A stretch of DNA of 64,000 bases from Escherichia phage ime. Positions 8,424 through 27,087 of the stretch are shown in pieces (the first letter of the stretch is position 1; every line of letters starts with the position of its first letter). The DNA lies in the sequence record MN850576.1; one strand, given 5' to 3'. The translations under genes and the position numbers were made by a program. The notes under the pieces were generated by a model. It did no database searches and had not been told where the DNA came from. It worked only from the letters and a program-made list of their open reading frames with translations.

Positions 8424-10502
8424 TTAAAAAGGTGTTTCATCATCCTCAAAACCAGGGACCGGATCAGAGGATGGATCATCGTATTGGAGGTCTTCCTGCG
8501 TGTCAATAGGCTTGACAGTGGGTGTTACAACCTTATCAGCCACAACCTTGCCCATAGGTGTTTCTACAACTGCATGCTCCTGATCCTCAAACATAGCCTG
8601 AGGTCTCCAAACAACCTCCCCACCTTCTCCGTCTGTAAACATCTGCATTTCTTTGTCCCAGTACCAATTACTGGCATCATGGAACTTACCTGTATGCGGA
8701 TCCATAACTAAAGTGTCAGCAATACCTAAAGTTTTTGCTGGACGGTTTTTAAGACCTACCAGACGGACACGTCCACGAGAACGATCCACCATTTCTTCGG
8801 CCTCGACACCTATGACTACCCAACTCAACTGTTCAAGCCCAGCCGATCCTCGCAAATTCTCTTTTCGCACAGGATACCAGAAAGGTAATGGGTTACCATC
8901 CTTGTCCTTAGGGGGCACAATCTCTGTACGTTTGAGGTGAGCGATCACCAAGATAAACACGTTAAACTGCTTACAAAACGCAGCCAGTTGGGTCATAGCC
9001 ATGTCCAGTTCTTTTCGCTCATCCTTAACATTAAGCCCTGAAATTACCATGGACAGGTGATCCAGCACAATATAACGACAATGGTACAGGCAAACCATTT
9101 GCTTAAGCTTGGTAATCAACTCGTCCACTGGAATAGACCCGAAATGTTTGAACACTTTGATTTTTCCAGCTTTTGCCCATGATTGGTGAATCTCTGCGTG
9201 TTCTTGATCAGTTAAAAACTGGCTAGGATCTTCAACAAACTCTTTAACATCAAACCCTAACTGGTTTGCATACAAGGAGTTAATTGCTTCCTCTGGGTCC
9301 TCCTCAAGATGGATCATACATAGACGATCATCCTCTTCATAGTCATCAGCCTTCGGGCATGTTGGGTCCATTAGGTATCTTGCAATACAATGTTCCAGTT
9401 TTTTAGCTACGGTTGTTTTACCGCCACCTGATGGGCCTGTAAGCATTACAAGTGTCCCCTTGTGCAAGCCTTTTAACATTTTTTGCAGTTTTGGGAACTC
9501 TGCACTGATATCTACCCCGTTGGAAGTCTTTTTCCGCAAAGACTCGATAGAGAAGTCTTCTAAGTCCGACACAGCATCAGGCACGTATTTAACAGGATGC
9601 CGGAACATGTTGACAATATCTTCCAGCTTTTTAGCCTTCAGCATGTCACGGATATCTTTTACCCCGTCAGGGTCATTTACTTCACCAGGGTATTCTACGT
9701 GGTAAACGTTATCAGCCATCAAAAATGCTGCGATATTGTGCGTGGCCTCAACACCTTTAATGACGTGTTTTTGCTTCTCTACCTCGTTGGCTGCATCGTT
9801 ATCCATTGCCAGCACAACTGTTCCATAGCTACGGATAAACTTCTCATTGTTTGCAAAAGTATCTACTGCGTTTGCACATCCACAGTTAATTCCAACAAAA
9901 GGTAGGCAGGGTTTTCCTGCCAGATCACCACCGTTGATAACTGCATCGATCCCGTCCTGGACCTCTTTAGCCCACTGTTTCACCTTTGCCGGGGCTTTAG
10001 CATTGGTGAGAATCCCTTTTACTTGTATCTGATATGCAGCCTGCCATGCTGCAATAACATCGCCTTCCCCCTCACAAACGTTAATCTGCTTACGGTTGTT
10101 AGAAGATGCACACAGCTTTTGCCCAAACATTTGGGAGTTAGCCTTTACGATCCCAACCGTCGTAAAGTGCCCACGTTGCTCTTTGGGGATCGTCCAGTCA
10201 CGCTTTTTGAAACCGGACAGATTCCCGTAGCGGTCGTAATATGGGAAATATGTTGCAGTAACTGTCACACCGTCTTCTTGGGACAATGCTGATCGCACAC
10301 CAAAATATTGTGCAGCCATCAGACCGATATTTTGTTGTGGGACAGGGACAATTTTAGTATTTTCTAAAACAGTCTCTACAGTTTCAACTTCTTTTTCATC
10401 ACGATAGTCTCGTTTCACACTTCCCCCACTTTTATACTTAGTTGCTTTCGGGTTTGGCTCACCGAAACGGTTGTATGCAGATGCCATAAATTTACTTCCC
10501 AT
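8424..10502 (-). CDS. DNA primase-helicase (T7 gp4-like; TOPRIM primase plus DnaB-type helicase)
   Basis: 692 aa; TOPRIM motifs VCEGEGD and AMDNDAAN; Walker A GPSGGGKTT; acidic C-terminal tail ending ...EDDETPF. Confidence 0.8.
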   Translation of the reverse strand: MGSKFMASAYNRFGEPNPKATKYKSGGSVKRDYRDEKEVETVETVLENTKIVPVPQQNIGLMAAQYFGVRSALSQEDGVTVTATYFPYYDRYGNLSGFKKRDWTIPKEQRGHFTTVGIVKANSQMFGQKLCASSNNRKQINVCEGEGDVIAAWQAAYQIQVKGILTNAKAPAKVKQWAKEVQDGIDAVINGGDLAGKPCLPFVGINCGCANAVDTFANNEKFIRSYGTVVLAMDNDAANEVEKQKHVIKGVEATHNIAAFLMADNVYHVEYPGEVNDPDGVKDIRDMLKAKKLEDIVNMFRHPVKYVPDAVSDLEDFSIESLRKKTSNGVDISAEFPKLQKMLKGLHKGTLVMLTGPSGGGKTTVAKKLEHCIARYLMDPTCPKADDYEEDDRLCMIHLEEDPEEAINSLYANQLGFDVKEFVEDPSQFLTDQEHAEIHQSWAKAGKIKVFKHFGSIPVDELITKLKQMVCLYHCRYIVLDHLSMVISGLNVKDERKELDMAMTQLAAFCKQFNVFILVIAHLKRTEIVPPKDKDGNPLPFWYPVRKENLRGSAGLEQLSWVVIGVEAEEMVDRSRGRVRLVGLKNRPAKTLGIADTLVMDPHTGKFHDASNWYWDKEMQMFTDGEGGEVVWRPQAMFEDQEHAVVETPMGKVVADKVVTPTVKPIDTQEDLQYDDPSSDPVPGFEDDETPF

Positions 10503-11256
10503 TAATTCTGCTCCTTACTACAGGCTCGTTTGCTAAGAATACGGCTTTTGCCCAGCCACGTGGTGTGAGGCTTCGGATCATCTTCGTTCTTGCACTCTTC
10601 CCACCCAGCTTGGCGTGTTGCATGGAATACCCGCTAACCGCGTCAACTATTTGCGGGACAGGTTTTGTGGCCGGGATTATAAATCCATTACCTATCCAGC
10701 CGCAAGTTATTTTTGGATAGGCATCACGTGGAGCTATAAATTCAGGAAACCAGGGGTTTACATCATCCTCCGGTAAATACCCGCCATAGTCAGAAGGATG
10801 AAAACGGTAATCAGGTTTGCGCCACAGTGTGGACATAACACCAACAGGATTCTCTACATGCCACGGGCAATCGTAAATCTCTCCCAGCTCTTCCGCAACC
10901 CGAGCATCCTTTACAGCATTAATTTGGATCAAAGGATCCTTAGCCAGCTTTTTCTTAAAATGTGCAGCACCTGATACCGCTAAATGCGTGCACGGAGGAA
11001 ATGCAAGAATAAAGTCTGGAGCTGGATACATGCAAAAAGTTTCCTGAGGGAACCATGGGTCAATCCAATAATCCACATAGTGAATGTTAGGATGATCGGT
11101 TATCACCTCTGCATAACTGCCGTGGTCAGCACCTTCTGCATTAAAGCACAGGCACAGGTACCCAGCTTTTGCCCAGTCAATAACTGCACCACCAGACCCG
11201 TCAAATAGACTCCACACAACACCTTTGTGGTAGTGTTCTTTGTAGATGAATTTCAA
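10492..11256 (-). CDS. putative DNA (cytosine-5)-methyltransferase (short form)
   Basis: Motifs in canonical order: LFDGSGG (motif I), PPC...SGA (motif IV PC), HVENPVG (motif VI ENV). Start moved to TTG 11256, which has AGGAGA 7 nt upstream; the GTG at 11286 used by the ORF track lies inside the terminator hairpin. Confidence 0.55.
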   Translation of the reverse strand: MKFIYKEHYHKGVVWSLFDGSGGAVIDWAKAGYLCLCFNAEGADHGSYAEVITDHPNIHYVDYWIDPWFPQETFCMYPAPDFILAFPPCTHLAVSGAAHFKKKLAKDPLIQINAVKDARVAEELGEIYDCPWHVENPVGVMSTLWRKPDYRFHPSDYGGYLPEDDVNPWFPEFIAPRDAYPKITCGWIGNGFIIPATKPVPQIVDAVSGYSMQHAKLGGKSARTKMIRSLTPRGWAKAVFLANEPVVRSRINGK

Positions 11257-11274
11257 TTTGCTGTCTCCTAATGC

Positions 11275-11301
11275 AAAAAGCCCCACCCTTTCGGGCAGGG
11301 C
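11275..11301 (-). terminator. rho-independent terminator (minus strand)
   Basis: Same hairpin as at 292-313 (GCCCUGCCC-GAAA-GGGUGGGGC) followed by UUUUU on the minus strand; lies downstream of gene 11308..11790. Confidence 0.6.
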
Positions 11302-11307
11302 CTAGTG

Positions 11308-11790
11308 TTAAACCCGGATACCTATTGTATACTCGGTGGATACCAATGTCAAATCTAAATTTAAAATTTCTTGCATCTCATAATATGCGTCCAGGGTTAG
11401 ATACATTTCCCCATCCTTTTCTACATACTTGTCCAAGTGCTTGAGGCATTTCGGATAACTATCAAGTGCAGCTTTCAGGCACTCAAACTCTGTGCTGTTG
11501 ATGAATCCTTCCATCTTGGCTACCCGTTCTGGGGTAATGATAGCACTGTAGTGAGATTTAGCTTCCTGAATGCAATGGGTCCAAGCATCAACCTTCTCTT
11601 CGAAAAGTCCAAAGAACTTCTTTTTGGTGAGCTTCAGATTCTTTAAGTGCTTAAGCACTCGGTTGCCGATTACAGCCACATCACGAAACTTAAGGATCAC
11701 CTTGTCGATATCCTCGCGGCCTATTTTCACAAAGCAGGCTTCGCACATTTCAGGGGCTGCGTAACCTACTTTCCACATAAAATCTGACAT
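11308..11790 (-). CDS. hypothetical protein with N-terminal Cys motif (WKVGYAAPEMCEAC)
   Basis: 160-aa ORF; N-terminal motif is shared with ORF 30344..30544. Confidence 0.5.
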   Translation of the reverse strand: MSDFMWKVGYAAPEMCEACFVKIGREDIDKVILKFRDVAVIGNRVLKHLKNLKLTKKKFFGLFEEKVDAWTHCIQEAKSHYSAIITPERVAKMEGFINSTEFECLKAALDSYPKCLKHLDKYVEKDGEMYLTLDAYYEMQEILNLDLTLVSTEYTIGIRV

Positions 11791-13903: not shown

Positions 13904-14245
13904 CTACTCAAGGTCTTCAGAGTCAAGCTCAAAAAGAATCAAACTGTGCATACCTGCAGAGAGATTAACACACCCTGCAACAATAAGGGTTTGATAGTAA
14001 GGTTCAGCACCCTCAATGTCTTCGTTAAAATCCACAACAAGGTAGTCACCTTTGTTAAAGGTGTATTTGTCCGATGTAAACGCAAAACCTGCCCAGTCCC
14101 CTACTGCAGGATCTTTATCAGTCACCTTTGTTAGCAGTAGATCTTTTTCACGAGATCTTTTAGTAAAATCGTGAATCACAACATCCTTCTCTTCAGGAGT
14201 CGGATTGCCACACACGTAGTTAACGATATTTCTCCACAAACTCAT
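13904..14245 (-). CDS. hypothetical protein
   Basis: 113-aa ORF; stop overlaps helicase gene start region. Confidence 0.5.
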   Translation of the reverse strand: MSLWRNIVNYVCGNPTPEEKDVVIHDFTKRSREKDLLLTKVTDKDPAVGDWAGFAFTSDKYTFNKGDYLVVDFNEDIEGAEPYYQTLIVAGCVNLSAGMHSLILFELDSEDLE

Positions 14246-15612
14246 ACGTCCCCCTCTTCTGCTCTGGTTTCAAAATCTTTCCTGACAATTTTGTCTAAGT
14301 CAGGGAATGTTGTATTGTAAAACTCTACTACTCGCGGGTCAACAATAATGTCAACTTCTCTTAGGGGACGCAACAAGTTTATTCCTTGTATTGTCTTAAC
14401 TCTACTCAAAGCGACATACGTCATCCCAGGAGAGAAAGCTCCGTTCTTTCCAAGGTCTAGGTTGTAACAATCTAGCGTAAGTCCTTGACTTTTATGAGAT
14501 GTTACGGCGTACCCAGATTTCAGAGGAAGTTGCTTGTATGACCCAATCACTACCCTCTCTATAAACTTCTCCATCTTCCTTTCTGCAATGTTGTATCTCT
14601 GAGAGGGCTTATACTCGTTATTCTCCCACAACCTCTGCTCTATGTCAACCTGTGTTCCATCTTCAAGCTCTACCACCACCGCCTTGTTCTTAAATTTAAC
14701 AATTGTGGCACGTGTTCCGTTAACATAATAAGGTACTTTGTGCGTCGGGTCAACATCGTTGGCGGTTATCATAACTTTCATGCCAATTTTCAACTTCATC
14801 TCCTGCTCAACTGGCAGGGTGGAGGGAAACTTACCCTTCATTTCACCAGTGTATACCTTCTCTGGGGCGTTGATGGCATCATAGAACCTTCTGTTTACTT
14901 CCTCTGCTTGTTTGTTGGTGGCGCAAATTGTGAGAGCATCTGTTGGTACACCACCTTTGTAACAGCGAGCATTAAGTTCTGCTACAACCTCTTTTATGCG
15001 ACGACCCTCACGAACACAGTTGAGCATTGTGGCAAATCGAATAGACTCCTGTCGGAACTGATCTATTAGGGCTATGTTGTGGAGGTCAAGCTCTTTCCAA
15101 GATTCGGTGTAGCAACACAGGTCCGTATGGTAGAAGTTGAAGTAGGCTTCCTTCTCCATAGAAGAGACAACAGGAGGTGCCTGGTAAAAATCGCCAAACA
15201 ATATGACCTGTATGCCTCCGAAAGGTTTGTCATTTTTTCGAAGGAAGCGGAGTTTCCTATCCATCTCTATAAACTTATCAGCACGGATCATAGAGATTTC
15301 ATCGATAATTAGGATGGTAAATGCCTTGCTTTTCAAAGGCTTTGCTGTTTTTGCCCTTATTGCGGTCCAGTCCGACTCCATGCTCACACCTGCTGCAAGA
15401 TCGAATGTTCGGTGTGCTGTTGCTCCATTAACGTTTAAAGCGGCTACCCCTGTCGGGGCAACCGTTATGCAAGAGTCTCCATACATTGACTGGATCATGT
15501 TGATGAGATACGTCTTCCCACAACCTGCAGGTCCTGAAACGAAGACATTCTCACCACTCATGATTGCAATGAGGGCAGCATCTGTGCCTACGTCATACTG
15601 CCCTTTTTCCAT
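14242..15612 (-). CDS. SF1B DNA helicase (Dda/RecD/Pif1-like)
   Basis: 456 aa; Walker A GPAGCGKTY, Walker B IIDEISM, GDFYQ motif, and C-terminal TSHKSQG characteristic of Dda/RecD-type helicases. Confidence 0.8.
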   Translation of the reverse strand: MEKGQYDVGTDAALIAIMSGENVFVSGPAGCGKTYLINMIQSMYGDSCITVAPTGVAALNVNGATAHRTFDLAAGVSMESDWTAIRAKTAKPLKSKAFTILIIDEISMIRADKFIEMDRKLRFLRKNDKPFGGIQVILFGDFYQAPPVVSSMEKEAYFNFYHTDLCCYTESWKELDLHNIALIDQFRQESIRFATMLNCVREGRRIKEVVAELNARCYKGGVPTDALTICATNKQAEEVNRRFYDAINAPEKVYTGEMKGKFPSTLPVEQEMKLKIGMKVMITANDVDPTHKVPYYVNGTRATIVKFKNKAVVVELEDGTQVDIEQRLWENNEYKPSQRYNIAERKMEKFIERVVIGSYKQLPLKSGYAVTSHKSQGLTLDCYNLDLGKNGAFSPGMTYVALSRVKTIQGINLLRPLREVDIIVDPRVVEFYNTTFPDLDKIVRKDFETRAEEGDV

Positions 15613-18810: not shown

Positions 18811-19307
18811 TTATTGCGCTCCTTGTAGTAGATATGGCTCCCGAATTGAGCTGTCCTCTGCATCTTTTTTGCCCATTTCGGTCGTACTTTGGTTGTATGG
18901 TAGTGTGTTGCTCCACCTGTTATGTCCATAGCCATGTATGCAACATGGTTGTTATTATAGACCTTTAGAAGCATCTTTGCAAGACTTTTAGCGTGATCCC
19001 ATGAATCTTTTTCTGTCACCTTAAAAGTTTTGCCGTGGTTTGTCCACGAAAACTGGTTAGGTTGGTAGACAATCTTTCTTATAGTGTCTGGGTATTTAGG
19101 GTGGGATTTCCTGTTTAGTGTGGCAAACCCAGATGCCAGCATACCCATCGTGCCATCTCCTCTAGCTTCCCTGTAGATATTGCATGCCAGAATGTTTTCC
19201 TTAGTATCTGATGGCTTGCAAGTATGATATACTTTTTGTTTTTGTGCTGCAACAACAGGCAGCGATAAAAGTGCGCTCAAAATAATAGCAAAGATCTTAA
19301 TTTTCAC
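18807..19307 (-). CDS. secreted cell-wall hydrolase, SleB family (candidate endolysin)
   Basis: 166 aa; N-terminal signal peptide MKIKIFAIILSALLSLPVVAA; motifs NIYREARGDG ... TLNR ... QF typical of SleB-type hydrolases. Confidence 0.65.
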   Translation of the reverse strand: MKIKIFAIILSALLSLPVVAAQKQKVYHTCKPSDTKENILACNIYREARGDGTMGMLASGFATLNRKSHPKYPDTIRKIVYQPNQFSWTNHGKTFKVTEKDSWDHAKSLAKMLLKVYNNNHVAYMAMDITGGATHYHTTKVRPKWAKKMQRTAQFGSHIYYKERNK

Positions 19308-19317
19308 AATGACTCCA

Positions 19318-19343
19318 AATAGAAAATCCCCGCCGAAGCGGGG
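19318..19343 (-). terminator. rho-independent terminator (minus strand)
   Basis: Minus-strand hairpin CCCCGC-UUCG-GCGGGG followed by AUUUUCU; between gene 19357..19785 and the SleB-like gene. Confidence 0.55.
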
Positions 19344-19356
19344 GAGGTCTTAGAAA

Positions 19357-19785
19357 TTAATCGTAGTGTGCCAAAATCTCTCCATCGTTGCAAGTTCCCT
19401 CTACAAAGTTATGAAGATTCATGCACTCATCTTGATAGAAGAATTTACCGCTTTTCAGCCGTAGGCCAAACAACTCCGCATCTCCACGATGGCAAGCCTC
19501 TACAAGTTCATAGATTTCATACGGCAACTCTCCGTCGTCATGGAAGAATCCAGCCTTATCGTTGACATAAATGAAGAAATAATCACTGCTATCGCAAGCG
19601 TCCAATATTTTAAACCAGACTTCATCTACATCTTTTTCTCGGATATCGATCACGCAAGTGGAGCTGCATTCGTACTCCTTCTCCGGCTCCTCGGTCAATA
19701 CCACCAGGTAGTTTCCCCGCTTACCTACTTTAGCCATACAACCCCCCTTAAGCTTTAGCCAAAATGGCGCTAAACTCTTCACCAA
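19357..19785 (-). CDS. hypothetical protein
   Basis: 142-aa ORF. Confidence 0.5.
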   Translation of the reverse strand: MVKSLAPFWLKLKGGCMAKVGKRGNYLVVLTEEPEKEYECSSTCVIDIREKDVDEVWFKILDACDSSDYFFIYVNDKAGFFHDDGELPYEIYELVEACHRGDAELFGLRLKSGKFFYQDECMNLHNFVEGTCNDGEILAHYD

Positions 19786-20932
19786 ACTCTTTTACAATCT
19801 TCATCAGGTTTGGGTATGCTTTGATCAGCTGAGCAACAATCTTGTCACGCCCTTTACCGATAAGCAAGGCATTTCCTAAGGCATTAGGTTTCATCATCGC
19901 CATAAAGACTGAGAATACAAAATCTCGGTTCTCGTCCTTGAAGTTTTCCCAAAGGAAATCGAGGAAGTTTGCCACGCAGCTGACAAGATCTTCGTCTGAG
20001 ATACTTGCATTTTCCATCATATTGCGAATAGCGATACAACCTTCAGATCCAAGAATCCACAAAATGTCTGGCTGCTTAGGACCTACGTATTCTTTGCAGC
20101 CACCTGCCATAATCCGACCGATTTCCGGTAAATTACGTTTCTTGGTGTGGTAAGTCCAGATCTCTACCGCTGCAGTGTGACCAATAGCACCTTGTAGAAG
20201 AACACGGGCCATAGCGTCAGAAATAATACCGCTGTCAAAATCGTGCAAGATGTCAGATGCAGCAACCCAAGATCGTGGTGTGGCAAAAGATGGACAATTA
20301 ATCTCAGCCATAGCCTCATAATTATCAATAGCTGATGGAACTCTTTTCAGATACCCAATTACAGAGGAGTGAACCCCGTTGAGGAATGCGTAGTCCTCAA
20401 TAAACACCTCTGCATTGCTTGTAACCTCTACAATGATAAAACGGTTAGCCAGAGGGGCTTCGAGCGCCGAAAGAACCGCACCATCTGTAGAACGGTTACC
20501 CGCAGCCACAAAAACAGAACCCTTAGGGAATGCATAGGTGCCGCACTTGTGGTCAAGCATAATTTGCATTGCAACCTTTTGCAGGTAGTTATCTGCATGA
20601 GTGAGCTCATCCAGAAAGATAATTCCGCTCCAGTCAGGATCCGCAGGCCAAAATTCTGGAATTGCAAACACTGTACGTGTAGTTCCATCCGCTTCTACAG
20701 GGATAGGTAGCCCAGATAAGTCGGCAGGATCTTTATCTGACAGTCGCACGTCAACAAGGTTGTCATCTCGCTCACCGAACATATTATCAGCGATCTGCTT
20801 CATCACCTGGCTTTTACCCACACCCATTGGTCCCAAAATTAGGACAGATCGGCTATGACGTTGGGCAAACTGAATAATAGCTGGCAACTCACGGACAGTG
20901 ATTTGACCACTTTCGAATACGTTTCTTGACAT
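19748..20932 (-). CDS. AAA+ ATPase (MoxR/AAA_5-like)
   Basis: 394 aa; Walker A GPMGVGKSQ, Walker B IIFLDELTHA, sensor-like AAGNRS. Confidence 0.7.
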   Translation of the reverse strand: MSRNVFESGQITVRELPAIIQFAQRHSRSVLILGPMGVGKSQVMKQIADNMFGERDDNLVDVRLSDKDPADLSGLPIPVEADGTTRTVFAIPEFWPADPDWSGIIFLDELTHADNYLQKVAMQIMLDHKCGTYAFPKGSVFVAAGNRSTDGAVLSALEAPLANRFIIVEVTSNAEVFIEDYAFLNGVHSSVIGYLKRVPSAIDNYEAMAEINCPSFATPRSWVAASDILHDFDSGIISDAMARVLLQGAIGHTAAVEIWTYHTKKRNLPEIGRIMAGGCKEYVGPKQPDILWILGSEGCIAIRNMMENASISDEDLVSCVANFLDFLWENFKDENRDFVFSVFMAMMKPNALGNALLIGKGRDKIVAQLIKAYPNLMKIVKEFGEEFSAILAKA

Positions 20933-21201
20933 TAGTAAAAGTCCTCTACTTGTGTGTAAGTGTTTTCAAAGTTTTCCAAAACAGATATCACATCGAATCT
21001 GTCAATATCATACGTGACTCTCCAGTTGTACGCAACCCTTTCTGCTGTTGCCTCTTCTGGCGCTAGTCGTCTGCTGGCATAAAAGAGTGTTGGAGTACAC
21101 TTTCTTGCTTGCCCTCTAACTTTCCCATAATAATATCTGTGAATATCTTTGTCAAAATTTAACTCTTTTTCTGCACGAAGTTCATATTGCTGGTATAACA
21201 T
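20932..21201 (-). CDS. hypothetical protein
   Basis: 89-aa ORF. Confidence 0.45.
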   Translation of the reverse strand: MLYQQYELRAEKELNFDKDIHRYYYGKVRGQARKCTPTLFYASRRLAPEEATAERVAYNWRVTYDIDRFDVISVLENFENTYTQVEDFY

Positions 21202-21245
21202 CTCTACTACTCCTTAAGCAGCATCCTTGCCGCCATTCCTGCCCA

Positions 21246-21626
21246 CTAAAATGCAGTCCGAATCCAGACAAGGTTCTTATCTGCCCAATCATAGAGGCAA
21301 GTCATTGCACTATTGAATTGCTCACACGGAGGATAATCTTCTTCCATCTGGCGCATAGCAGAGCCTTGTGGGTAAAGCTCCCGTGCTGCAAACCACGCGT
21401 CGTAGTCATCAACGGTGTCGAAGTAGTATACAACATCCTCTAACTCAGGATCGAACTTTGAACTATCAGGATCCAGTTGTTCAGGGAACTTGGAGCGTAA
21501 CTTGCCAGCCACAATACTTGCCAACTCGCTAACATGCTTATTGTCCCACTCCACTAGCTTCCCGTCTTCAGTGATGCGTCCTAACCACTGATCATGAAGG
21601 TCAACTGTTGTCTTCCACTGAGCCAT
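21246..21626 (-). CDS. hypothetical protein
   Basis: 126-aa ORF. Confidence 0.5.
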   Translation of the reverse strand: MAQWKTTVDLHDQWLGRITEDGKLVEWDNKHVSELASIVAGKLRSKFPEQLDPDSSKFDPELEDVVYYFDTVDDYDAWFAARELYPQGSAMRQMEEDYPPCEQFNSAMTCLYDWADKNLVWIRTAF

Positions 21627-21628
21627 TA

Positions 21629-21889
21629 TCAGTCCACCTCTTCTTCTCGTTGTAGTTCAAGATACCCGTAGGTCTGGACATCTTGAAGGGTGTGGAACTC
21701 CCCCCCCTCTGCCGCTAAGGCACGAACAACTTGGCACAAAACCTTATGAGGAACTTCATCCAAACCTAGATTCAGTGCAGGAAACACCTTATCTAAGTCA
21801 ACAAAATAAACGAACTGTAGCTCACCAGCTTCAAAAGGTGTATCTTCAATAAACATCTTCTCGGCATTAGTCAAGATCTGCACTTTCAT
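21629..21889 (-). CDS. hypothetical protein
   Basis: 86-aa ORF. Confidence 0.45.
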   Translation of the reverse strand: MKVQILTNAEKMFIEDTPFEAGELQFVYFVDLDKVFPALNLGLDEVPHKVLCQVVRALAAEGGEFHTLQDVQTYGYLELQREEEVD

Positions 21890-22245
21890 TATTCTACCTC
21901 CTCTTCTTTTTCTTCGGCATTAGTTTCATGGCTACCCCACTCGGGAGTTTCCACCTCGATAGTAAACTCACGCACTACACGGTAATTGCCCATGAAGCGC
22001 TCTACTTCGTCAAGGCTTATGGAGAGGCCATTGGCAACCAGGTCTGCAGCACCCTCTTCTACCAGGTAGTCCAGATTGGCTTCCAGAGCCTCAGGTTCAA
22101 ACCCTGTCAATGCAATCAGATAACCTTCCCCTTCATCAGGGAGGACAATACAGCCCAATTGATTTTCTTTAAAAAGGCAGTGACCATCATTATTGATTGG
22201 GTGTTCATTGCAGTAAATAGCTGCACGATAAGTAACTTTAGACAT
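21889..22245 (-). CDS. hypothetical protein (N-terminus MSKVTYRA shared with internal segment of 23510..24553)
   Basis: ATG at 22245 has AAGGAG 9 nt upstream; the ORF track instead starts at TTG 22266. Start region lies in a 29-bp inverted repeat. Confidence 0.5.
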   Translation of the reverse strand: MSKVTYRAAIYCNEHPINNDGHCLFKENQLGCIVLPDEGEGYLIALTGFEPEALEANLDYLVEEGAADLVANGLSISLDEVERFMGNYRVVREFTIEVETPEWGSHETNAEEKEEEVE

Positions 22246-22250
22246 CGGTA
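22222..22250. repeat. 29-bp perfect inverted repeat copy A (partner at 24084..24112)
   Basis: Sequence tgcacgataagtaactttagacatcggta is the exact reverse complement of 24084-24112. Confidence 0.85.
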
Positions 22251-22258
22251 AGGTCTCC

Positions 22259-22537
22259 TTAGGCAATTGTCGTTTTACATTCTTGAAATTTTAACACAAG
22301 ACGGTGATTGTGTCTAGTGTCTAAAAAGATTTTTTCAACCATCAGGCACACGGTATAACCGTCAATCTTGTTGACAACAAAATCTCCAGGATGAGGGAGG
22401 ATGTCTCCCGGATTGGGGAAACATAGTCCACTCAGAAAGGCATCGTCAGTGGTGGACTTAATAGATTTCCACACACTGTCTGCCTGAACATGTTCACCGA
22501 CGTAATATACATTACCACATGCCTTCATCATAGTCAA
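22259..22537 (-). CDS. hypothetical protein
   Basis: 92-aa ORF. Confidence 0.45.
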   Translation of the reverse strand: MTMMKACGNVYYVGEHVQADSVWKSIKSTTDDAFLSGLCFPNPGDILPHPGDFVVNKIDGYTVCLMVEKIFLDTRHNHRLVLKFQECKTTIA

Positions 22538-23433
22538 ACCCTCGCATAAATTAAACTTGTATCAGTATACTTCTTTAATGGGTAAATATCCTGTCCATAG
22601 ATGCAATCATTAAACACCTCATCTACCCAAAGGCTACACTTATATCCCATCATTTCTAAAACACCCATCTCTTCTTCGGTAAACTTATCACCGCTCTTGC
22701 AAGATGTCAATACCTCATTCTGAACTCTTGCTACCTCGAAGCGGTTATTGGCAATATCGCTATTGGCGATCAAATACTCACCTAGAGGGTGTGCGGCATT
22801 AAAGATGCACAGTGGACGGCTGACGTAATAGTCTCCAGGTGTATAAAAATTGTTGAGGTCTTTCACTAGAACATTCTTATCAGTCACTTCATTTATAACA
22901 TCATGCATATCGCACATCTTTATATGTTTGAGGATTCCATCCCCCATCACAAAATAAAAACTTGCTGAGACACTTTCGGCATAGATCTTACTAGATCCGT
23001 TGTAGTTGTATTTTACTCGGATGCTAACGGGGGTTTTTCCTGTCGCGTTAGCCATCATCCAAAGAAATGGCAGCTCATACTTCTCCTCTGAGGAAACAAA
23101 AGGTGAGGTAGCCAGAGATCGAAAACCTCCAGAGAAGTTGAAAGTTACAGAACCGCTCCGGCGGTATGATACCGCGTATTCTACTTTTATATCGACATAC
23201 CCATTGGAATAGGTGTGTCCTTCATTATCTAAATATGTCCACTTATCAGACCCAGATACCAATCTACGCTCAATAACCTTCATCACTATAGGAATTAATG
23301 GGTTGGTACAAACCGCTTTTGAAGTAGCTTTATCATCTAAAGCCTCGTAAATTGCAGAAAGGATGTCCCCAGCTGAAAGATTGGTTGTTATGTCCTGTTT
23401 CCACCGCGTACTAAAACTGTTAAGATTTGCCAT
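22534..23433 (-). CDS. hypothetical protein (first gene of leftward operon)
   Basis: 299-aa ORF; AGGAG RBS upstream of ATG 23433; sits downstream of the leftward sigma70-like promoter. Confidence 0.55.
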   Translation of the reverse strand: MANLNSFSTRWKQDITTNLSAGDILSAIYEALDDKATSKAVCTNPLIPIVMKVIERRLVSGSDKWTYLDNEGHTYSNGYVDIKVEYAVSYRRSGSVTFNFSGGFRSLATSPFVSSEEKYELPFLWMMANATGKTPVSIRVKYNYNGSSKIYAESVSASFYFVMGDGILKHIKMCDMHDVINEVTDKNVLVKDLNNFYTPGDYYVSRPLCIFNAAHPLGEYLIANSDIANNRFEVARVQNEVLTSCKSGDKFTEEEMGVLEMMGYKCSLWVDEVFNDCIYGQDIYPLKKYTDTSLIYARV

Positions 23434-23473
23434 AAGTAAGTGCTCCTATGTTAGTTTTCTTTCGAATGGGTGC

Positions 23474-23502
23474 ACTATATTGTGGAGTTAGAGTAAAGTC
23501 AA
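23474..23502 (-). promoter_or_regulatory. sigma70-like promoter, leftward (-35 TTGACT, 17-nt spacer, -10 TATAGT)
   Basis: On the minus strand: TTGACT-N17-TATAGT, about 40 nt upstream of the gene start at 23433. Confidence 0.55.
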
Positions 23503-23509
23503 CACGTTT

Positions 23510-24553
23510 TTGATGTTGACATCTGTTGAGACAATTGATACGATTTCTTCACTTACAGAGCACGAGAGACGACTCATGAATCTTGAAAAATATTATACAC
23601 CAGAAGAGTTAGAGCGCTTGCTCAAAAAATATAGACGCAAACAGAATAACGCACGGAAACGAGATATAGAGTTCGACCTGTCATGGGAAGAATACCTCCT
23701 ATTTGGTAAAAAACTTTTAGGAGATGGAGTATGCGACTATACCCTTATACCTTTTGACATGCACACAGATGAAAACGGGCTGGGGAATCCTTTCTACCCA
23801 TCTCTGGAGCGGATAGATGATGAAGGTCCTTATGCGGTTGATAACTGTTGTGTGGTGGGATTGAGATGCAACTCTCTAAAGGACTGTCTGGTAGATAAAA
23901 AGACTGCAGTCTTGATTAAAGACGAAACTGATCGAAAAATTGTCCAGCAGATGATGCTCCACCTGAGCGAAGAGCGTATGGAGAAATTGAAAGGTGATTA
24001 TACTTTTGAAGATTTCATCTTGCAATATGGAACGGAAGAGGATAAACTAGCACTCTTTGACGAAGAAGAGGAGGAAGATATGCTACCGATGTCTAAAGTT
24101 ACTTATCGTGCACCCAAGAAGCACATTTCCGACATTGTAAACGAGCCTATCACAGAAGAGATTGAAGAAATGACGCAACAGGTGCATGAAGAGGAAAAAG
24201 AGACTCAGGAGGTCGAAGAGGAGCTTACAGAAGAGGTTCCTGCACTACCTGATGATGTTGAGATTGCCAAAGCTTACACTTTCTATTGTCAAACGTTCTA
24301 CGATGTAGGTATGAAAGTTGATCTGTCGTTCAGCCAATTTAAGAGTTCGTATATTCGCAAATGCTGTGCTTTAACTGGTGAACGTCTTGGAGCTGGACTT
24401 AAACCCCTGTTGGTGACCGACTGGAATAAAGGTTTCACTAAAGGAAACTTTATGGTAGTATCTCCAATTATGGAGAAAGCTATGACAGATCTTATGAAGA
24501 CCACCCGCATGACAATGACCGAGTTGGCAGGTATTTTCAAACACGTTAAATAA
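23510..24553 (+). CDS. hypothetical protein with two degenerate HNH (His-Me finger)-like domains
   Basis: 347-aa ORF; two halves share the pattern [FV]DLS...C..TG...[RW]...G[YF]...N..VV...K; the catalytic His appears replaced in both. Start may be ATG 23576 if the promoter at 23516-23544 is used. Confidence 0.5.
   Translation: MMLTSVETIDTISSLTEHERRLMNLEKYYTPEELERLLKKYRRKQNNARKRDIEFDLSWEEYLLFGKKLLGDGVCDYTLIPFDMHTDENGLGNPFYPSLERIDDEGPYAVDNCCVVGLRCNSLKDCLVDKKTAVLIKDETDRKIVQQMMLHLSEERMEKLKGDYTFEDFILQYGTEEDKLALFDEEEEEDMLPMSKVTYRAPKKHISDIVNEPITEEIEEMTQQVHEEEKETQEVEEELTEEVPALPDDVEIAKAYTFYCQTFYDVGMKVDLSFSQFKSSYIRKCCALTGERLGAGLKPLLVTDWNKGFTKGNFMVVSPIMEKAMTDLMKTTRMTMTELAGIFKHVK
23516..23544 (+). promoter_or_regulatory. 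sigma70-like promoter, rightward (-35 TTGACA, 17-nt spacer, -10 TACGAT)
   Basis: TTGACA at 23516-23521, 17-nt spacer, TACGAT at 23539-23544; divergent from the leftward promoter. Confidence 0.5.
24084..24112. repeat. 29-bp perfect inverted repeat copy B (partner at 22222..22250)
   Basis: taccgatgtctaaagttacttatcgtgca; encodes LPMSKVTYRA in the interdomain linker of ORF 23510..24553 and follows a GAGGAGGA and ATG. Confidence 0.85.
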
Positions 24554-24565
24554 TGACAGGGGCCA

Positions 24566-26047
24566 ATGGCCCCTTCTGGAGTTTTAATGGATAGTAGAAG
24601 TTCAGAAATCATTGCCTCGCAGAAAGATGATGCCCTGAGAATGTTGCAGGCTGCACGTATGTATCTCCTTGAAAAGCTGCCGTTTTATGGCACACTACTG
24701 TCAGGGTTGCAGTTCGTAGAAAACCACACATGGTGCTCCACCATGGCAACCGACCATAAACGCATCTATTACAGTCCTGAGTTCATTATGGGATTGGCTG
24801 ATGAACGCAAGGCTATTCTTAAGGCTTCTCTAACTGACGAGCAGTTTGAGATGGCTGAAGTTTTCTATTCCCCAAAATCTGTGAAAGAGGTGGCCTTCCT
24901 TCTGTCACATGAGGTGGGGCATATTATCTGTGATCACCTAGTCCGTGGTAAAAGCTTTGAGCCGGAACTGTTCAATATTGCTTGTGATCACGTTATCAAC
25001 ACAGGCCTTGTGGTTGACTTTAGCAAACCTCCTTGTGTTTTCTTCCCGAAGGGGAAAAGCACTACGTTCATGAAAGGTAAGCCTTTTGGCTTCTTAGCCA
25101 GCTGCTACTGCGACATGAAGTTTCATGGATGGATTGCTGAGAACGTTTATGCAGTTCTTGATAAGCAAAGAGATCAGAATAACGGTAAAAGTAAGAACGG
25201 TAAAGGTGAGAACTCTCAAAGTGATAAGCGACAAACCGATGATCACATGAGTGGGAACGGTGGCACCAGTGATAATCTTGGAAAGGCTATGAGGTATGAT
25301 CAGCCACAACCTGTAATCAGCCAATCTGATAAAGATCAGGCCATGCAGGACTCTGGTGATATGCTGGAGGCAGCAATGCAAGCGTCCGGAGGCCGTTGCC
25401 CTGAGGCGGTGCGTGAGTTTGTCAAGAACAGAGGTAAGCCTGTAATCAACTATATAGACATCATTAAGCAACGTATGTTGTCTAAAAGAAAGGCCGAACT
25501 GACCTACAGAAAACCTGGTCGCCGATCTGGGTCTTTGACCAGCACAATGCGAAAAGTTGGGGCTATAAACAAGAACCAGCACGTTATTGTTCCTGGTCGT
25601 AATCCGGAAAACACTATAGATATTGTGGTGGCTTTAGACGTTTCTGGCTCGATCTCTCAAAGAACTTTAAAGAAAATGTTCAATGAAATCACCGGATTGT
25701 GCAATCTGTATAAAGAGTTTAAGGTTACAATGTTCTGTTGGTCAACTGAGGTTGGAGAGGTTAAAGTATACACTCGCGGCAACATAGACGAGATGGTCAA
25801 CTATGAGGTCCACTCAACATGGGGCACAACAGCTGCTTGCGTGTTCGAGTATCTGGATGCCAACATACCTAATGCAAAAGATGTCATCGTCCTGACCGAC
25901 CTATACTTTGAGCATAACTTTGAACAAAAGGTTGTTGACAACAAGTGGAAAAAGTACGATACTCTATGGGTCCTCACTGAGGGGTATAATAAAAATTATA
26001 TCCCGAGCTTTGGGAAAACTGTGGAATTAATCGAGTACGCTAAGTAA
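24566..26047 (+). CDS. putative metallopeptidase plus VWA domain protein
   Basis: 493 aa; HExxH motif (LSHEVGHIICDH) in the N-terminal half; MIDAS-like VVALDVSGSIS in the C-terminal half. Alternative start ATG 24587 has a GGAG RBS. Confidence 0.65.
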   Translation: MAPSGVLMDSRSSEIIASQKDDALRMLQAARMYLLEKLPFYGTLLSGLQFVENHTWCSTMATDHKRIYYSPEFIMGLADERKAILKASLTDEQFEMAEVFYSPKSVKEVAFLLSHEVGHIICDHLVRGKSFEPELFNIACDHVINTGLVVDFSKPPCVFFPKGKSTTFMKGKPFGFLASCYCDMKFHGWIAENVYAVLDKQRDQNNGKSKNGKGENSQSDKRQTDDHMSGNGGTSDNLGKAMRYDQPQPVISQSDKDQAMQDSGDMLEAAMQASGGRCPEAVREFVKNRGKPVINYIDIIKQRMLSKRKAELTYRKPGRRSGSLTSTMRKVGAINKNQHVIVPGRNPENTIDIVVALDVSGSISQRTLKKMFNEITGLCNLYKEFKVTMFCWSTEVGEVKVYTRGNIDEMVNYEVHSTWGTTAACVFEYLDANIPNAKDVIVLTDLYFEHNFEQKVVDNKWKKYDTLWVLTEGYNKNYIPSFGKTVELIEYAK

Positions 26048-26062
26048 GAGAGGAGGTTATTT

Positions 26063-26326
26063 ATGGCAACAGAGTTAAAATTTGCATCAAACCGTAAAAC
26101 TAAGAAGTATCTGTCCTCAGTAGCTCCAGGCACTGTGGTGATGTTTGTTGATGAACTTGGGGATGTGAATACAGCACTTGTTGTAAAATCACATCCTGCA
26201 AACATATATGTTGGGGTATTTGACCTGTTCAGAAAGGTGTTTGTAGAACTGCCTCACAGTTTGGTTGTTACAGAAATGGATGCCTGCATAGAAATTCTTG
26301 GCGAAGTTATGGTGGAGGAACAATAA
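26063..26326 (+). CDS. small paralog family protein, copy 1
   Basis: 87 aa; GGAGG RBS; shares the core pattern (GTVV / CG.VV, conserved Val/Asp positions) with the next three ORFs. Confidence 0.55.
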   Translation: MATELKFASNRKTKKYLSSVAPGTVVMFVDELGDVNTALVVKSHPANIYVGVFDLFRKVFVELPHSLVVTEMDACIEILGEVMVEEQ

Positions 26327-26589
26327 TGGCTACCAGCATTGTATTCAATTCTAAGGTGAAGAACAAAAAGCGTGCAGACAGTTTTCCGTGTGGGACCGTG
26401 GTAAGTTGCGACGGAGACGGCATTCAAAACATAGTTATGATTGTCAAAACAGGAGAACATTGTGTGTGGGGGTTCGATTTAGAAAATAATGAGTTGTACG
26501 ATCTGCCGCCAAACATGAAAGTTACAGAGCTTGACACCAAAATTACCATCCTTGGAGAGACAAGCTATTCAAAAGAAGGAGGAGAATAA
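26326..26589 (+). CDS. small paralog family protein, copy 2
   Basis: 87 aa, exactly 264 nt; start overlaps previous stop (ATAATGG). Confidence 0.55.
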   Translation: MATSIVFNSKVKNKKRADSFPCGTVVSCDGDGIQNIVMIVKTGEHCVWGFDLENNELYDLPPNMKVTELDTKITILGETSYSKEGGE

Positions 26590-26852
26590 TGACCACAAAA
26601 ATCACTATCGCAGAACCGAAAGCTAACACTCAGCCTATCGAAAAGTTTAAGTGCGGTGAGGTGGTAACATTCACACCAGATAATGAAGATGCTAAGATTT
26701 TCGCAATGGTCACAGCTGAGTGGATGTGTGACAACACCACACAGGTTCTGCGTTTTGACACCTATCTTACCGATGAAATCAGGAACGACAAGATTGTGAC
26801 TGGTGTGGATACTGAGATTGTTTTCTACAAGAGCTTTTTAGAGGGTTTCTGA
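26589..26852 (+). CDS. small paralog family protein, copy 3
   Basis: 87 aa, exactly 264 nt; start overlaps previous stop. Confidence 0.55.
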   Translation: MTTKITIAEPKANTQPIEKFKCGEVVTFTPDNEDAKIFAMVTAEWMCDNTTQVLRFDTYLTDEIRNDKIVTGVDTEIVFYKSFLEGF

Positions 26853-26853
26853 T

Positions 26854-27087
26854 ATGGCAAAAATTAGAAAATTATCTAGCAATCAGGTTGTGAAAGACTT
26901 CGAATCTGGAGAGATTCTTTATGTTCGTGATGCAGATGACGAAGGTGAAGATCTCGTTATGTTGGTGGGGCACGCTGAGGACGGATGCATCCAAGCTGTT
27001 TTTCTTGAAACAGCTATGGTGCACTGGATAGAGCTGGACCTGAAAGCACGAAAACCTAAAGCAGAAATCCTGATTTACGAAGATTAA
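26854..27087 (+). CDS. small paralog family protein, copy 4 (more diverged)
   Basis: 77 aa; same size class and acidic character, immediately downstream of copy 3. Confidence 0.5.
   Translation: MAKIRKLSSNQVVKDFESGEILYVRDADDEGEDLVMLVGHAEDGCIQAVFLETAMVHWIELDLKARKPKAEILIYED

Follow-up and report, generated by a model that had tools for sequence, protein, structure and literature searches.

Two genes in a 64,000-nucleotide stretch of DNA from Escherichia phage ime (sequence record MN850576.1; the whole stretch is hereafter called the window) raise the question of whether an ATPase and a putative adaptor encoded on opposite strands can be parts of a single molecular machine, and what such a machine might do. 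One codes for a MoxR-like AAA+ ATPase, and the other for a protein that combines a zincin-like HExxH motif with a von Willebrand factor A (VWA) domain bearing a metal ion-dependent adhesion site (MIDAS). They lie 3.6 kb apart on either side of a strand switch; here the open reading frame (ORF) positions agree with the original prediction, which was made from the sequence alone and had taken the two products for partners. The window belongs to a Vequintavirus, i.e. an rV5-like coliphage: over its region 19000-27000 it shares 99.8% identity with Escherichia phage Murica, and 121 phage records, nearly all from rV5-like phages (Vequintavirus), match this region at an identity of at least 90%. The rV5-like phage Bas54 shares with the window both gene order and gene lengths across rIIA, rIIB, the helicase, the ATPase and the VWA gene, and Bas54 genes were equated with window genes by order and length rather than by sequence identity. 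In rV5 numbering rIIA is gp1 and the anti-sigma factor of the Srd-like type that precedes the VWA gene is gp11. The two genes of interest are:

19748-20932, minus strand: MoxR-like AAA+ ATPase, 394 amino acids (aa); rV5 gp4, equivalent of Bas54_0063; phrog_1297, E 2e-110
24587-26047, plus strand: zincin-like (HExxH) protein with VWA domain and MIDAS, 486 aa; rV5 gp12, equivalent of Bas54_0055

Public annotation and the literature already contain both genes under their family names as well as the MoxR-VWA-peptidase pairing, which a 2021 paper described in jumbo phages. GenBank records call the first gene 'MoxR ATPase' or 'ATPase', and the second 'putative metallopeptidase', 'metallopeptidase, contains von Willebrand factor domain' or 'VWA-like domain containing protein'. 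For the window itself nothing here is new, as near-identical genomes already annotate both genes correctly. The additions made here are synteny counts that tie the split rV5 genes to the N4 gp24/gp25 and jumbo-phage pairs, a structural position for the ATPase beside NorQ/CbbQ, a revised start codon for the VWA gene, and the finding that a published Bas54 table shows this gene, too, to be depleted.

Synteny of the ATPase and VWA genes

The association of the two genes was examined in 50 IMG/VR viral loci with a VWA gene, found through a close-homologue subset, in which the ATPase was sought within 10 kb. An ATPase of the same family is present within this distance in 48 of the 50 loci. In 29 of these 48 it lies on the same strand upstream of the VWA gene, either directly adjacent to it (14 loci) or separated from it by an insert of 0.5-2.7 kb (15 loci). 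The pair is divergent in the other 19, with a gap of 3.4-5.1 kb, and all 19 come from rV5-like phages, as does the window. Adjacent and co-directional genes are also found in a relative at 39% identity and in a 578-kb megaphage, and in uncultured phages the adjacent pair is flanked by genes for a 5'-3' exonuclease and thymidylate synthase. Among phage records, tblastn matched 820 with the ATPase and 668 with the VWA protein, and it placed both families in N4-like podophages, in Certrevirus-like phages (CR3, phiTE) and in several groups of jumbo phages.

A scan of genome contigs recovered the adjacent pair in 9 of 10 loci; all 10 lie on contigs of metagenome-assembled genomes (MAGs), and hence say little about the cellular distribution of the module. 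Apart from these, a 1.25-Mb contig with housekeeping-type neighbours, reached through the genomic context of a single protein hit, is probably cellular. There, an ATPase of the same subfamily (E 4e-57 with the profile of the phage ATPase) with strong AAA_3/AAA_5 hits is encoded directly upstream of a DUF2201_N/DUF2201 protein with HEIMH and DVSGS motifs, in a chromosomal and not a viral context, though at this one locus. In a further contig (GCA_045600625.1, JAZRYF010000023.1, 616-6239) the ATPase-then-DUF2201 pair follows a gene for a 1076-aa SNF2/DEAD-helicase-like protein and precedes a faintly Peptidase_M50-like gene, a context that is possibly conflict-related.

The window pair belongs to the same two families as N4 gp24 (AAA ATPase) and gp25 (vWFA, pfam13203), the core pair of the N4-like phages (Schitoviridae), to which the literature assigns no function (PMC2784036, PMC6992544). 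In many N4-like genomes tblastn finds the two genes co-directional and 0.4-1 kb apart; the ATPase gene leads, and the pair occupies the pre-late region, with genes of nucleotide metabolism and rII genes nearby. The N4-type proteins are about 20-27% identical to those of the window and shorter (~350 and 390 aa), and they are encoded by one operon, whereas the window genes lie in divergent arms. A MoxR AAA+ ATPase paired with a vWA cochaperone that carries an N-terminal metallopeptidase was likewise described in jumbo phages by Iyer, Anantharaman, Krishnan, Burroughs and Aravind (2021, Viruses 13:63; PMC7824862). Domain architecture and pairing are identical to those of the window pair, and both window proteins find matches at 25-30% identity and at neighbouring coordinates in jumbo coliphages and in Yersinia and Pseudomonas jumbo phages; the jumbo-phage genes are adjacent, unlike the split genes of the window.

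Because the synteny is conserved, the genes being elsewhere adjacent, co-directional and ordered with the ATPase first, it supports the partnership that had been proposed for the separated window genes, and the ATPase and the VWA protein are probably partners in one functional unit. The most plausible reading of the rV5 arrangement is that an ancestral operon of two genes, ATPase then VWA, was split in this lineage, for which an inversion with a breakpoint in the spacer would be the simplest route. This module is among the most widely shared non-structural, non-replicative gene pairs of large virulent phages, and its function has stood as 'unknown' since the annotation of N4.

Domain architecture of the two proteins

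The motifs of the ATPase, all encoded on the minus strand, are as follows:

20810-20833, minus strand: Walker A, GPMGVGKS, aa 34-41
20606-20623, minus strand: Walker B, IIFLDE, aa 104-109
within 20495-20506, minus strand: sensor-1, N146
within 20438-20452, minus strand: Arg finger, R164 (LANRF)
within 20267-20284, minus strand: sensor-2, R220 (ATPRSW)

The gene is 100% identical to a gene of phage V5 named 'MoxR ATPase', and the Walker A, Walker B, sensor-1, Arg finger and sensor-2 motifs are all invariant in an alignment of 38 homologues reaching down to 30% identity. Scans of the protein with Pfam, NCBIfam and PADLOC returned sub-threshold P-loop hits only, and a single-sequence search of PDB found Clp/p97 at the Walker-A level only. 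A family profile searched against PDB sequences had the AAA modules of Midasin as its top match (E 1e-10), and homologues at E~1e-44 and 31-36% identity have precomputed PF07726 and PF07728 hits, most of them weak. With an AlphaFold2 model (pLDDT 84.7) as the query, NorQ or CbbQ2 accounted for 15 of the top 16 Foldseek matches in PDB (ranks 1-14 and 16). Read from its secondary-structure string, the model places a β-hairpin (strands 75-81 and 84-90) at the helix-2 position, after β2 and ahead of the Walker B strand; a second, small one at 129-134 separates helix 3 from the sensor-1 strand. A helix-2 β-hairpin insert and a pre-sensor-1 hairpin are hallmarks of the AAA+ clade that contains MoxR, and NorQ and CbbQ2 are MoxR ATPases partnered with the VWA proteins NorD and CbbO, respectively. 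As the window protein itself falls under the Pfam cut-offs, its membership of this group rests on transitive homology and structure, and judged by these it is accepted here as MoxR-like, although a Pfam threshold is formally not reached. The original assignment to the MoxR type is thus upheld by the NorQ/CbbQ2 folds and by Midasin as the best PDB sequence match.

The VWA protein has the following features:

24908-24922, plus strand: HExxH motif HEVGH, aa 108-112 of the 486-aa form
24974-25000, plus strand: conserved motif NxAxDxxxN
aa 200-229, plus strand: low-complexity linker
about aa 283-340, plus strand: conserved basic segment
25637-25651, plus strand: MIDAS, DVSGS (D351-x-S-x-S355)
within 25820-25831, plus strand: MIDAS, T414
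within 25892-25900, plus strand: MIDAS, D438
24558-24574, plus strand: hairpin AGGGGCC-AAT-GGCCCCT, a perfect 7-bp GC-rich palindrome between the Srd-like and VWA genes, annotated as a terminator in Murica

Two Pfam models match this protein above their curated cut-offs, namely PF13203 DUF2201_N ('putative metallopeptidase domain', E 3e-28) and PF09967 DUF2201 ('VWA-like domain', E 2e-11). Together with the HEVGH motif and a full MIDAS, these matches confirm the predicted HExxH and MIDAS-like protein; profile searches, which had been suggested as a check for both families, thus give a domain assignment above Pfam cut-offs for the VWA protein and leave the ATPase below those of AAA_3 and AAA_5. 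The protein is laid out as an N-terminal domain, the low-complexity linker, a helical region, the basic segment and then the VWA domain, which has a Rossmann-like VWA fold. Its translation had been predicted to start at 24566. The ATG at that position is in frame, but it is buried in the loop and stem of the hairpin 24558-24574 and lacks a Shine-Dalgarno sequence, whereas the ATG at 24587 has GGAG 5 bases upstream, is the start used in GenBank records and coincides with the N-termini of homologues. These features favour 24587, and the protein most likely has 486 aa rather than 493.

Among 60 distinct homologues of the VWA protein the HExxH motif is present in 59, and the DxSxS motif in 56, down to about 20% identity, the four exceptions being truncated ORFs. 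The MIDAS residues D351, S353, S355, T414 and D438 are invariant in 18 sequences, and the Glu of HExxH, which is a catalytic residue and not a ligand, is almost invariant. This pattern suggests that selection acts on both active sites, HExxH and MIDAS. An invariant NxAxDxxxN follows 18-26 residues after HExxH, and its D134 could be a candidate for the third metal ligand. The label 'metallopeptidase' is a prediction that rests on the name of the Pfam family, the near-universal HExxH and the invariant NxAxDxxxN; a literature search found no experimental report of peptidase activity for the DUF2201_N family, and one for COG3864 found no papers. A single-sequence PDB search with the VWA protein returned nothing.

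The closest cellular systems by structure are NorQ/NorD and CbbQ/CbbO (the CGN subfamily), which mature specific enzymes, cNOR and Rubisco, and are 15-22% identical in sequence to the phage pair. The layout of the phage VWA protein, with an N-terminal domain, a linker and the VWA domain, resembles that of NorD; in contrast, the N-terminal domains of NorD and CbbO are unrelated to that of the phage protein and lack HExxH. The phage ATPase also has an extra all-helical region at its C-terminus (about aa 270-394, ~125 aa) that is absent from NorQ and CbbQ. A virus-encoded MoxR-VWA pair is likewise known from the Acidianus two-tailed virus (p618, MoxR; p892, VWA), which is likened to the window pair from the literature and not by sequence; it differs in belonging to an archaeal virus, in lacking a peptidase domain and in its role in extracellular tail development.

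Host-conditional genetics and the role of the pair

Genetic data are available for Bas54 from the HIDEN-SEQ transposon study, a 2025 bioRxiv preprint (10.1101/2025.11.20.689424). In this study both the ATPase and the VWA gene were non-essential on E. coli K-12, with insertions in 60 of 64 and 81 of 86 TA sites, and the morphogenesis genes had zero insertions. DS-28 is a predicted two-gene defence system in the clinical E. coli isolate CFE311; bas54_0063 (the MoxR ATPase) and an unrelated small gene, bas54_0140, were needed to overcome it, as confirmed by knockouts on cloned DS-28. In the resampling table of CFE311 against K-12 the ATPase gene has a log2 fold change (log2FC) of -7.23 (q=0) and bas54_0055, the 'putative metallopeptidase', one of -2.20 (p=0.0009, q=0.009); the neighbouring genes 0056 (Srd-like), 0062 (the 89-aa ORF) and 0064 (3' of the ATPase) are unchanged on CFE311. 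The sheet in question (Extended Data Table 8) is titled 'resampling_K-12_vs_CFE303', its command line names the CFE311 sample and its numbers recur later, so that the values cover one host comparison. A shared phenotype had been put forward as a test of the partnership. In the published Bas54 data both genes are indeed dispensable on K-12 and both are depleted on CFE311; the effect of the VWA gene is much weaker, and of these two it is the ATPase gene that the result with cloned DS-28 concerns. As CFE311 and K-12 differ widely, with 27 genes significant, the shared CFE311 phenotype is suggestive only. A second host-conditional gene lies in the same leftward arm as the ATPase, namely the helicase gene at 14242-15612 (minus strand), 3' of rIIB, whose equivalent of the same length, Bas54_0068, is non-essential on K-12 and has a log2FC of -6.32 (q=0) on CFE311. 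Literature searches for a mechanism of DS-28 found nothing, and the PA5oct omics paper, the CRISPRi-ART paper and a second transposon preprint contained nothing on the ATPase or VWA genes.

The two genes fall in non-late transcription units of rV5, beside the Srd-like and rII genes (PMC3606486), and an early position after host-type promoters in such company fits a function in host takeover or counter-defence. In the NorQD complex, cryo-EM places a finger of the VWA domain in the AAA+ pore, where the hexamer twists the linker of the adaptor, and the MIDAS or the linker engages acidic residues of the target (PMC13036017). With NorQ/NorD and CbbQ/CbbO as the template, the two genes would encode the halves of one machine, a MoxR-type AAA+ ATPase and a VWA adaptor bearing an N-terminal HExxH zinc-peptidase-like domain. 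The ATPase hexamer would grip the VWA domain of gp12, the metal site of the MIDAS would hold on to a host or defence protein by one of its acidic residues, and ATP hydrolysis would twist or stretch the adaptor and its target so as to expose a segment that the zincin domain might cleave, or at least clamp. Such a module would be made before the late genes from host-type promoters, would be dispensable in the laboratory host, and would likely serve to neutralise a host factor, at least DS-28. This scheme starts from the domain identities, motif conservation, synteny and non-essentiality, and from the requirement for the ATPase against DS-28; every step past the linkage of the two families, be it the formation of a complex, the proteolysis, the nature of the target or the part of the VWA protein in the DS-28 effect, we infer. 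That the split pair acts as an ATP-driven, MIDAS-targeted anti-defence protease, which cuts or dismantles a DS-28 component or another host protein, is thus a tentative reading, to which we assign a probability of roughly 0.3. If it is true, this would be the first MoxR-VWA machine shown in phage counter-defence, and would provide a function for the N4 gp24/gp25 core genes and for their homologues in rV5-like, jumbo and uncultured marine phages. As the rV5 pair corresponds to N4 gp24/gp25 and to the jumbo-phage pair, the anti-DS-28 result from Bas54 becomes testable family-wide.

Several observations weigh against a joint machine of this kind. At the level of the domains, structure searches with the whole model of the VWA protein gave matches to VWA domains only, no solved zincin matching its N-terminal domain; the other Pfam signal at that domain is M48 only, sub-threshold and over the HExxH helix. 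The modelled VWA domain is compact and lacks an obvious long 'finger' of the kind expected from the NorQ/NorD and CbbQ/CbbO template, and for the ATPase no Pfam AAA model passes its curated cut-off (AAA_5, PF07728, 16.7 bits against 22; AAA_3, PF07726, no hit). In IMGVR_UViG_3300045988_163358 a VWA protein 45% identical to that of the window (locus 9995-11512) has no ATPase of the family within 10 kb on either side; the genes around it are all co-directional, and it is the sole full-length exception among the 50 loci. In the genetic data, the VWA gene is depleted on CFE311 about 30-fold less than the ATPase gene, the anti-DS-28 genes named by the authors are bas54_0063 and bas54_0140, the VWA gene not being among them, and CFE311 differs from K-12 in many ways, several of the 27 significant genes having values around -2.

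Some of these points would be accommodated if the two proteins had independent functions in rV5-like phages, the ATPase acting against DS-28 alone, or perhaps with Bas54_0140, and the zincin-VWA protein retaining a separate or residual role after the split. The position of the genes on different transcription arms, the distance between their effects on CFE311 (-7.23 and -2.20), the choice of 0063 and 0140 only for the DS-28 follow-up, the related phage with a VWA gene and no nearby ATPase, and the excess of ATPase over VWA records (820 > 668) are all consistent with such a separation. We nevertheless find it doubtful, given that all 19 rV5-like loci keep both genes at a near-constant spacing of 3.4-5.1 kb, that adjacency is near-universal outside the rV5-like phages, that the active-site motifs of both proteins are conserved, and that the VWA gene is significantly depleted on CFE311 too, its neighbours not.

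Two further explanations keep the pair together and assign it to another process. One is a virion-assembly chaperone with a processing protease: the pair would help structural proteins to fold or assemble, and its peptidase would trim them. It was proposed for the homologous pair of the group 2.2 jumbo phages by analogy with the p618/p892 tail system of the Acidianus two-tailed virus (PMC7824862), and is in keeping with MoxR-VWA systems being generally assembly or maturation chaperones. For rV5-like phages the Bas54 genetics argue against it: about 94% of the TA sites in both genes tolerate insertions at no fitness cost on K-12, whereas the morphogenesis genes tolerate none, and Bas54 has a separate prohead protease. 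The non-late units with sigma-70-like promoters and with Srd-like and rII neighbours, the placement of the pair among nucleotide-metabolism and replication genes in other phages, and the absence of both proteins from those that the text of PMC3606486 names as rV5 virion proteins point in the same direction. A virion-assembly role is therefore decidedly unlikely for the rV5-like phages, and recognition of the same module across these groups cautions against assuming one. The other explanation is a chaperone that inserts a metal or matures a cofactor for a metalloenzyme of the phage or the host, for example ribonucleotide reductase, comparable to NorQD, CoxDE, CobST and BchID, with the HExxH handling the metal. 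In its favour, NorQ/NorD, the nearest relatives of solved structure, load nitric oxide reductase with iron, the pair is found elsewhere among nucleotide-metabolism genes (thymidylate synthase, dCTP deaminase), and rV5 encodes both aerobic and anaerobic ribonucleotide reductases. Against this stand the lack of a fitness cost on K-12, a host-specific phenotype tied to a defence system, and the near-invariance of the Glu of HExxH, which would serve catalysis and not metal ligation, and we regard this explanation as very improbable.

Locus layout and neighbouring genes

The other elements of the locus are:

23434-23575, no strand: strand-switch intergenic region, spanning 77-140 bp, with back-to-back sigma-70-like promoter sites
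23474-23502, minus strand: leftward sigma-70-like site, TTGACT-17-TATAGT, a consensus match
23516-23544, plus strand: rightward sigma-70-like site, TTGACA-17-TACGAT with TG, a consensus match
20932-21201, minus strand: 89-aa ORF, its stop codon overlapping the ATPase start (TAATG)
23510-24553, plus strand: Srd-like anti-sigma factor gene, rV5 gp11 (phrog_3118, weaker Srd/anti-sigma PHROG hits, PMC3606486)

The promoter calls at the strand switch are consensus matches only, and promoter-like sites in the region number 33 against a shuffled expectation of 26.6 +/- 5.3, i.e. without excess. The predicted pair of sites at 23434-23575 is in line with an earlier report of bidirectional promoters separating genes 10 and 11 of rV5 (PMC3606486). 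Both genes of the ATPase/VWA pair had been placed in promoter-proximal operons. The VWA gene fits this description as the second gene of the rightward arm, with the annotated terminator-like hairpin (24558-24574) before it, at which its transcript may be attenuated or processed; the ATPase gene is the seventh of the leftward arm and lies some 2.5 kb away from the switch. A further sigma-70-like site near consensus (TTGACA-17-TATTAT, 11 of 12 matches) is situated at 21127-21155 on the minus strand, inside the 89-aa ORF and about 195 nt 5' of the ATPase start, and might serve the ATPase as a separate promoter, so that this gene need not depend on that of the strand switch. The overlap of stop and start codons (TAATG) suggests that the 89-aa ORF and the ATPase are probably translationally coupled. 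This ORF was considered as a third component of the pair and set aside, the equivalent Bas54_0062 being undepleted on CFE311 (log2FC +0.24).

The Srd-like gene opens the rightward arm directly 5' of the VWA gene, most records annotating its start near 23572, and is context, outside the ATPase/VWA pair. The first leftward gene, 22534-23433 (minus strand), is labelled 'putative alpha 1-3 fucosyltransferase' in several records, an annotation that looks unsupported because the product has no Pfam hit and only a PHROG of unknown function (phrog_12338). Certain PHROG names were likewise rejected as mislabels, namely 'HNH endonuclease' for phrog_1314 (zincin-VWA) and phrog_3118 (Srd-like) and 'ATPase' for phrog_13164 (the 89-aa ORF); the misleading names of these three families have now spread through many GenBank phage records. 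Directly 3' of the VWA gene, the plus-strand ORFs 26063-26326 and 26326-26589 code for two 87-aa paralogues in tandem, which share 39% identity (E 1e-12). Next come two ORFs of the same size class, 26589-26852 (87 aa) and 26854-27087 (77 aa), for which no similarity was detected, and all four of these small ORFs (26063-27087) are non-essential in Bas54.

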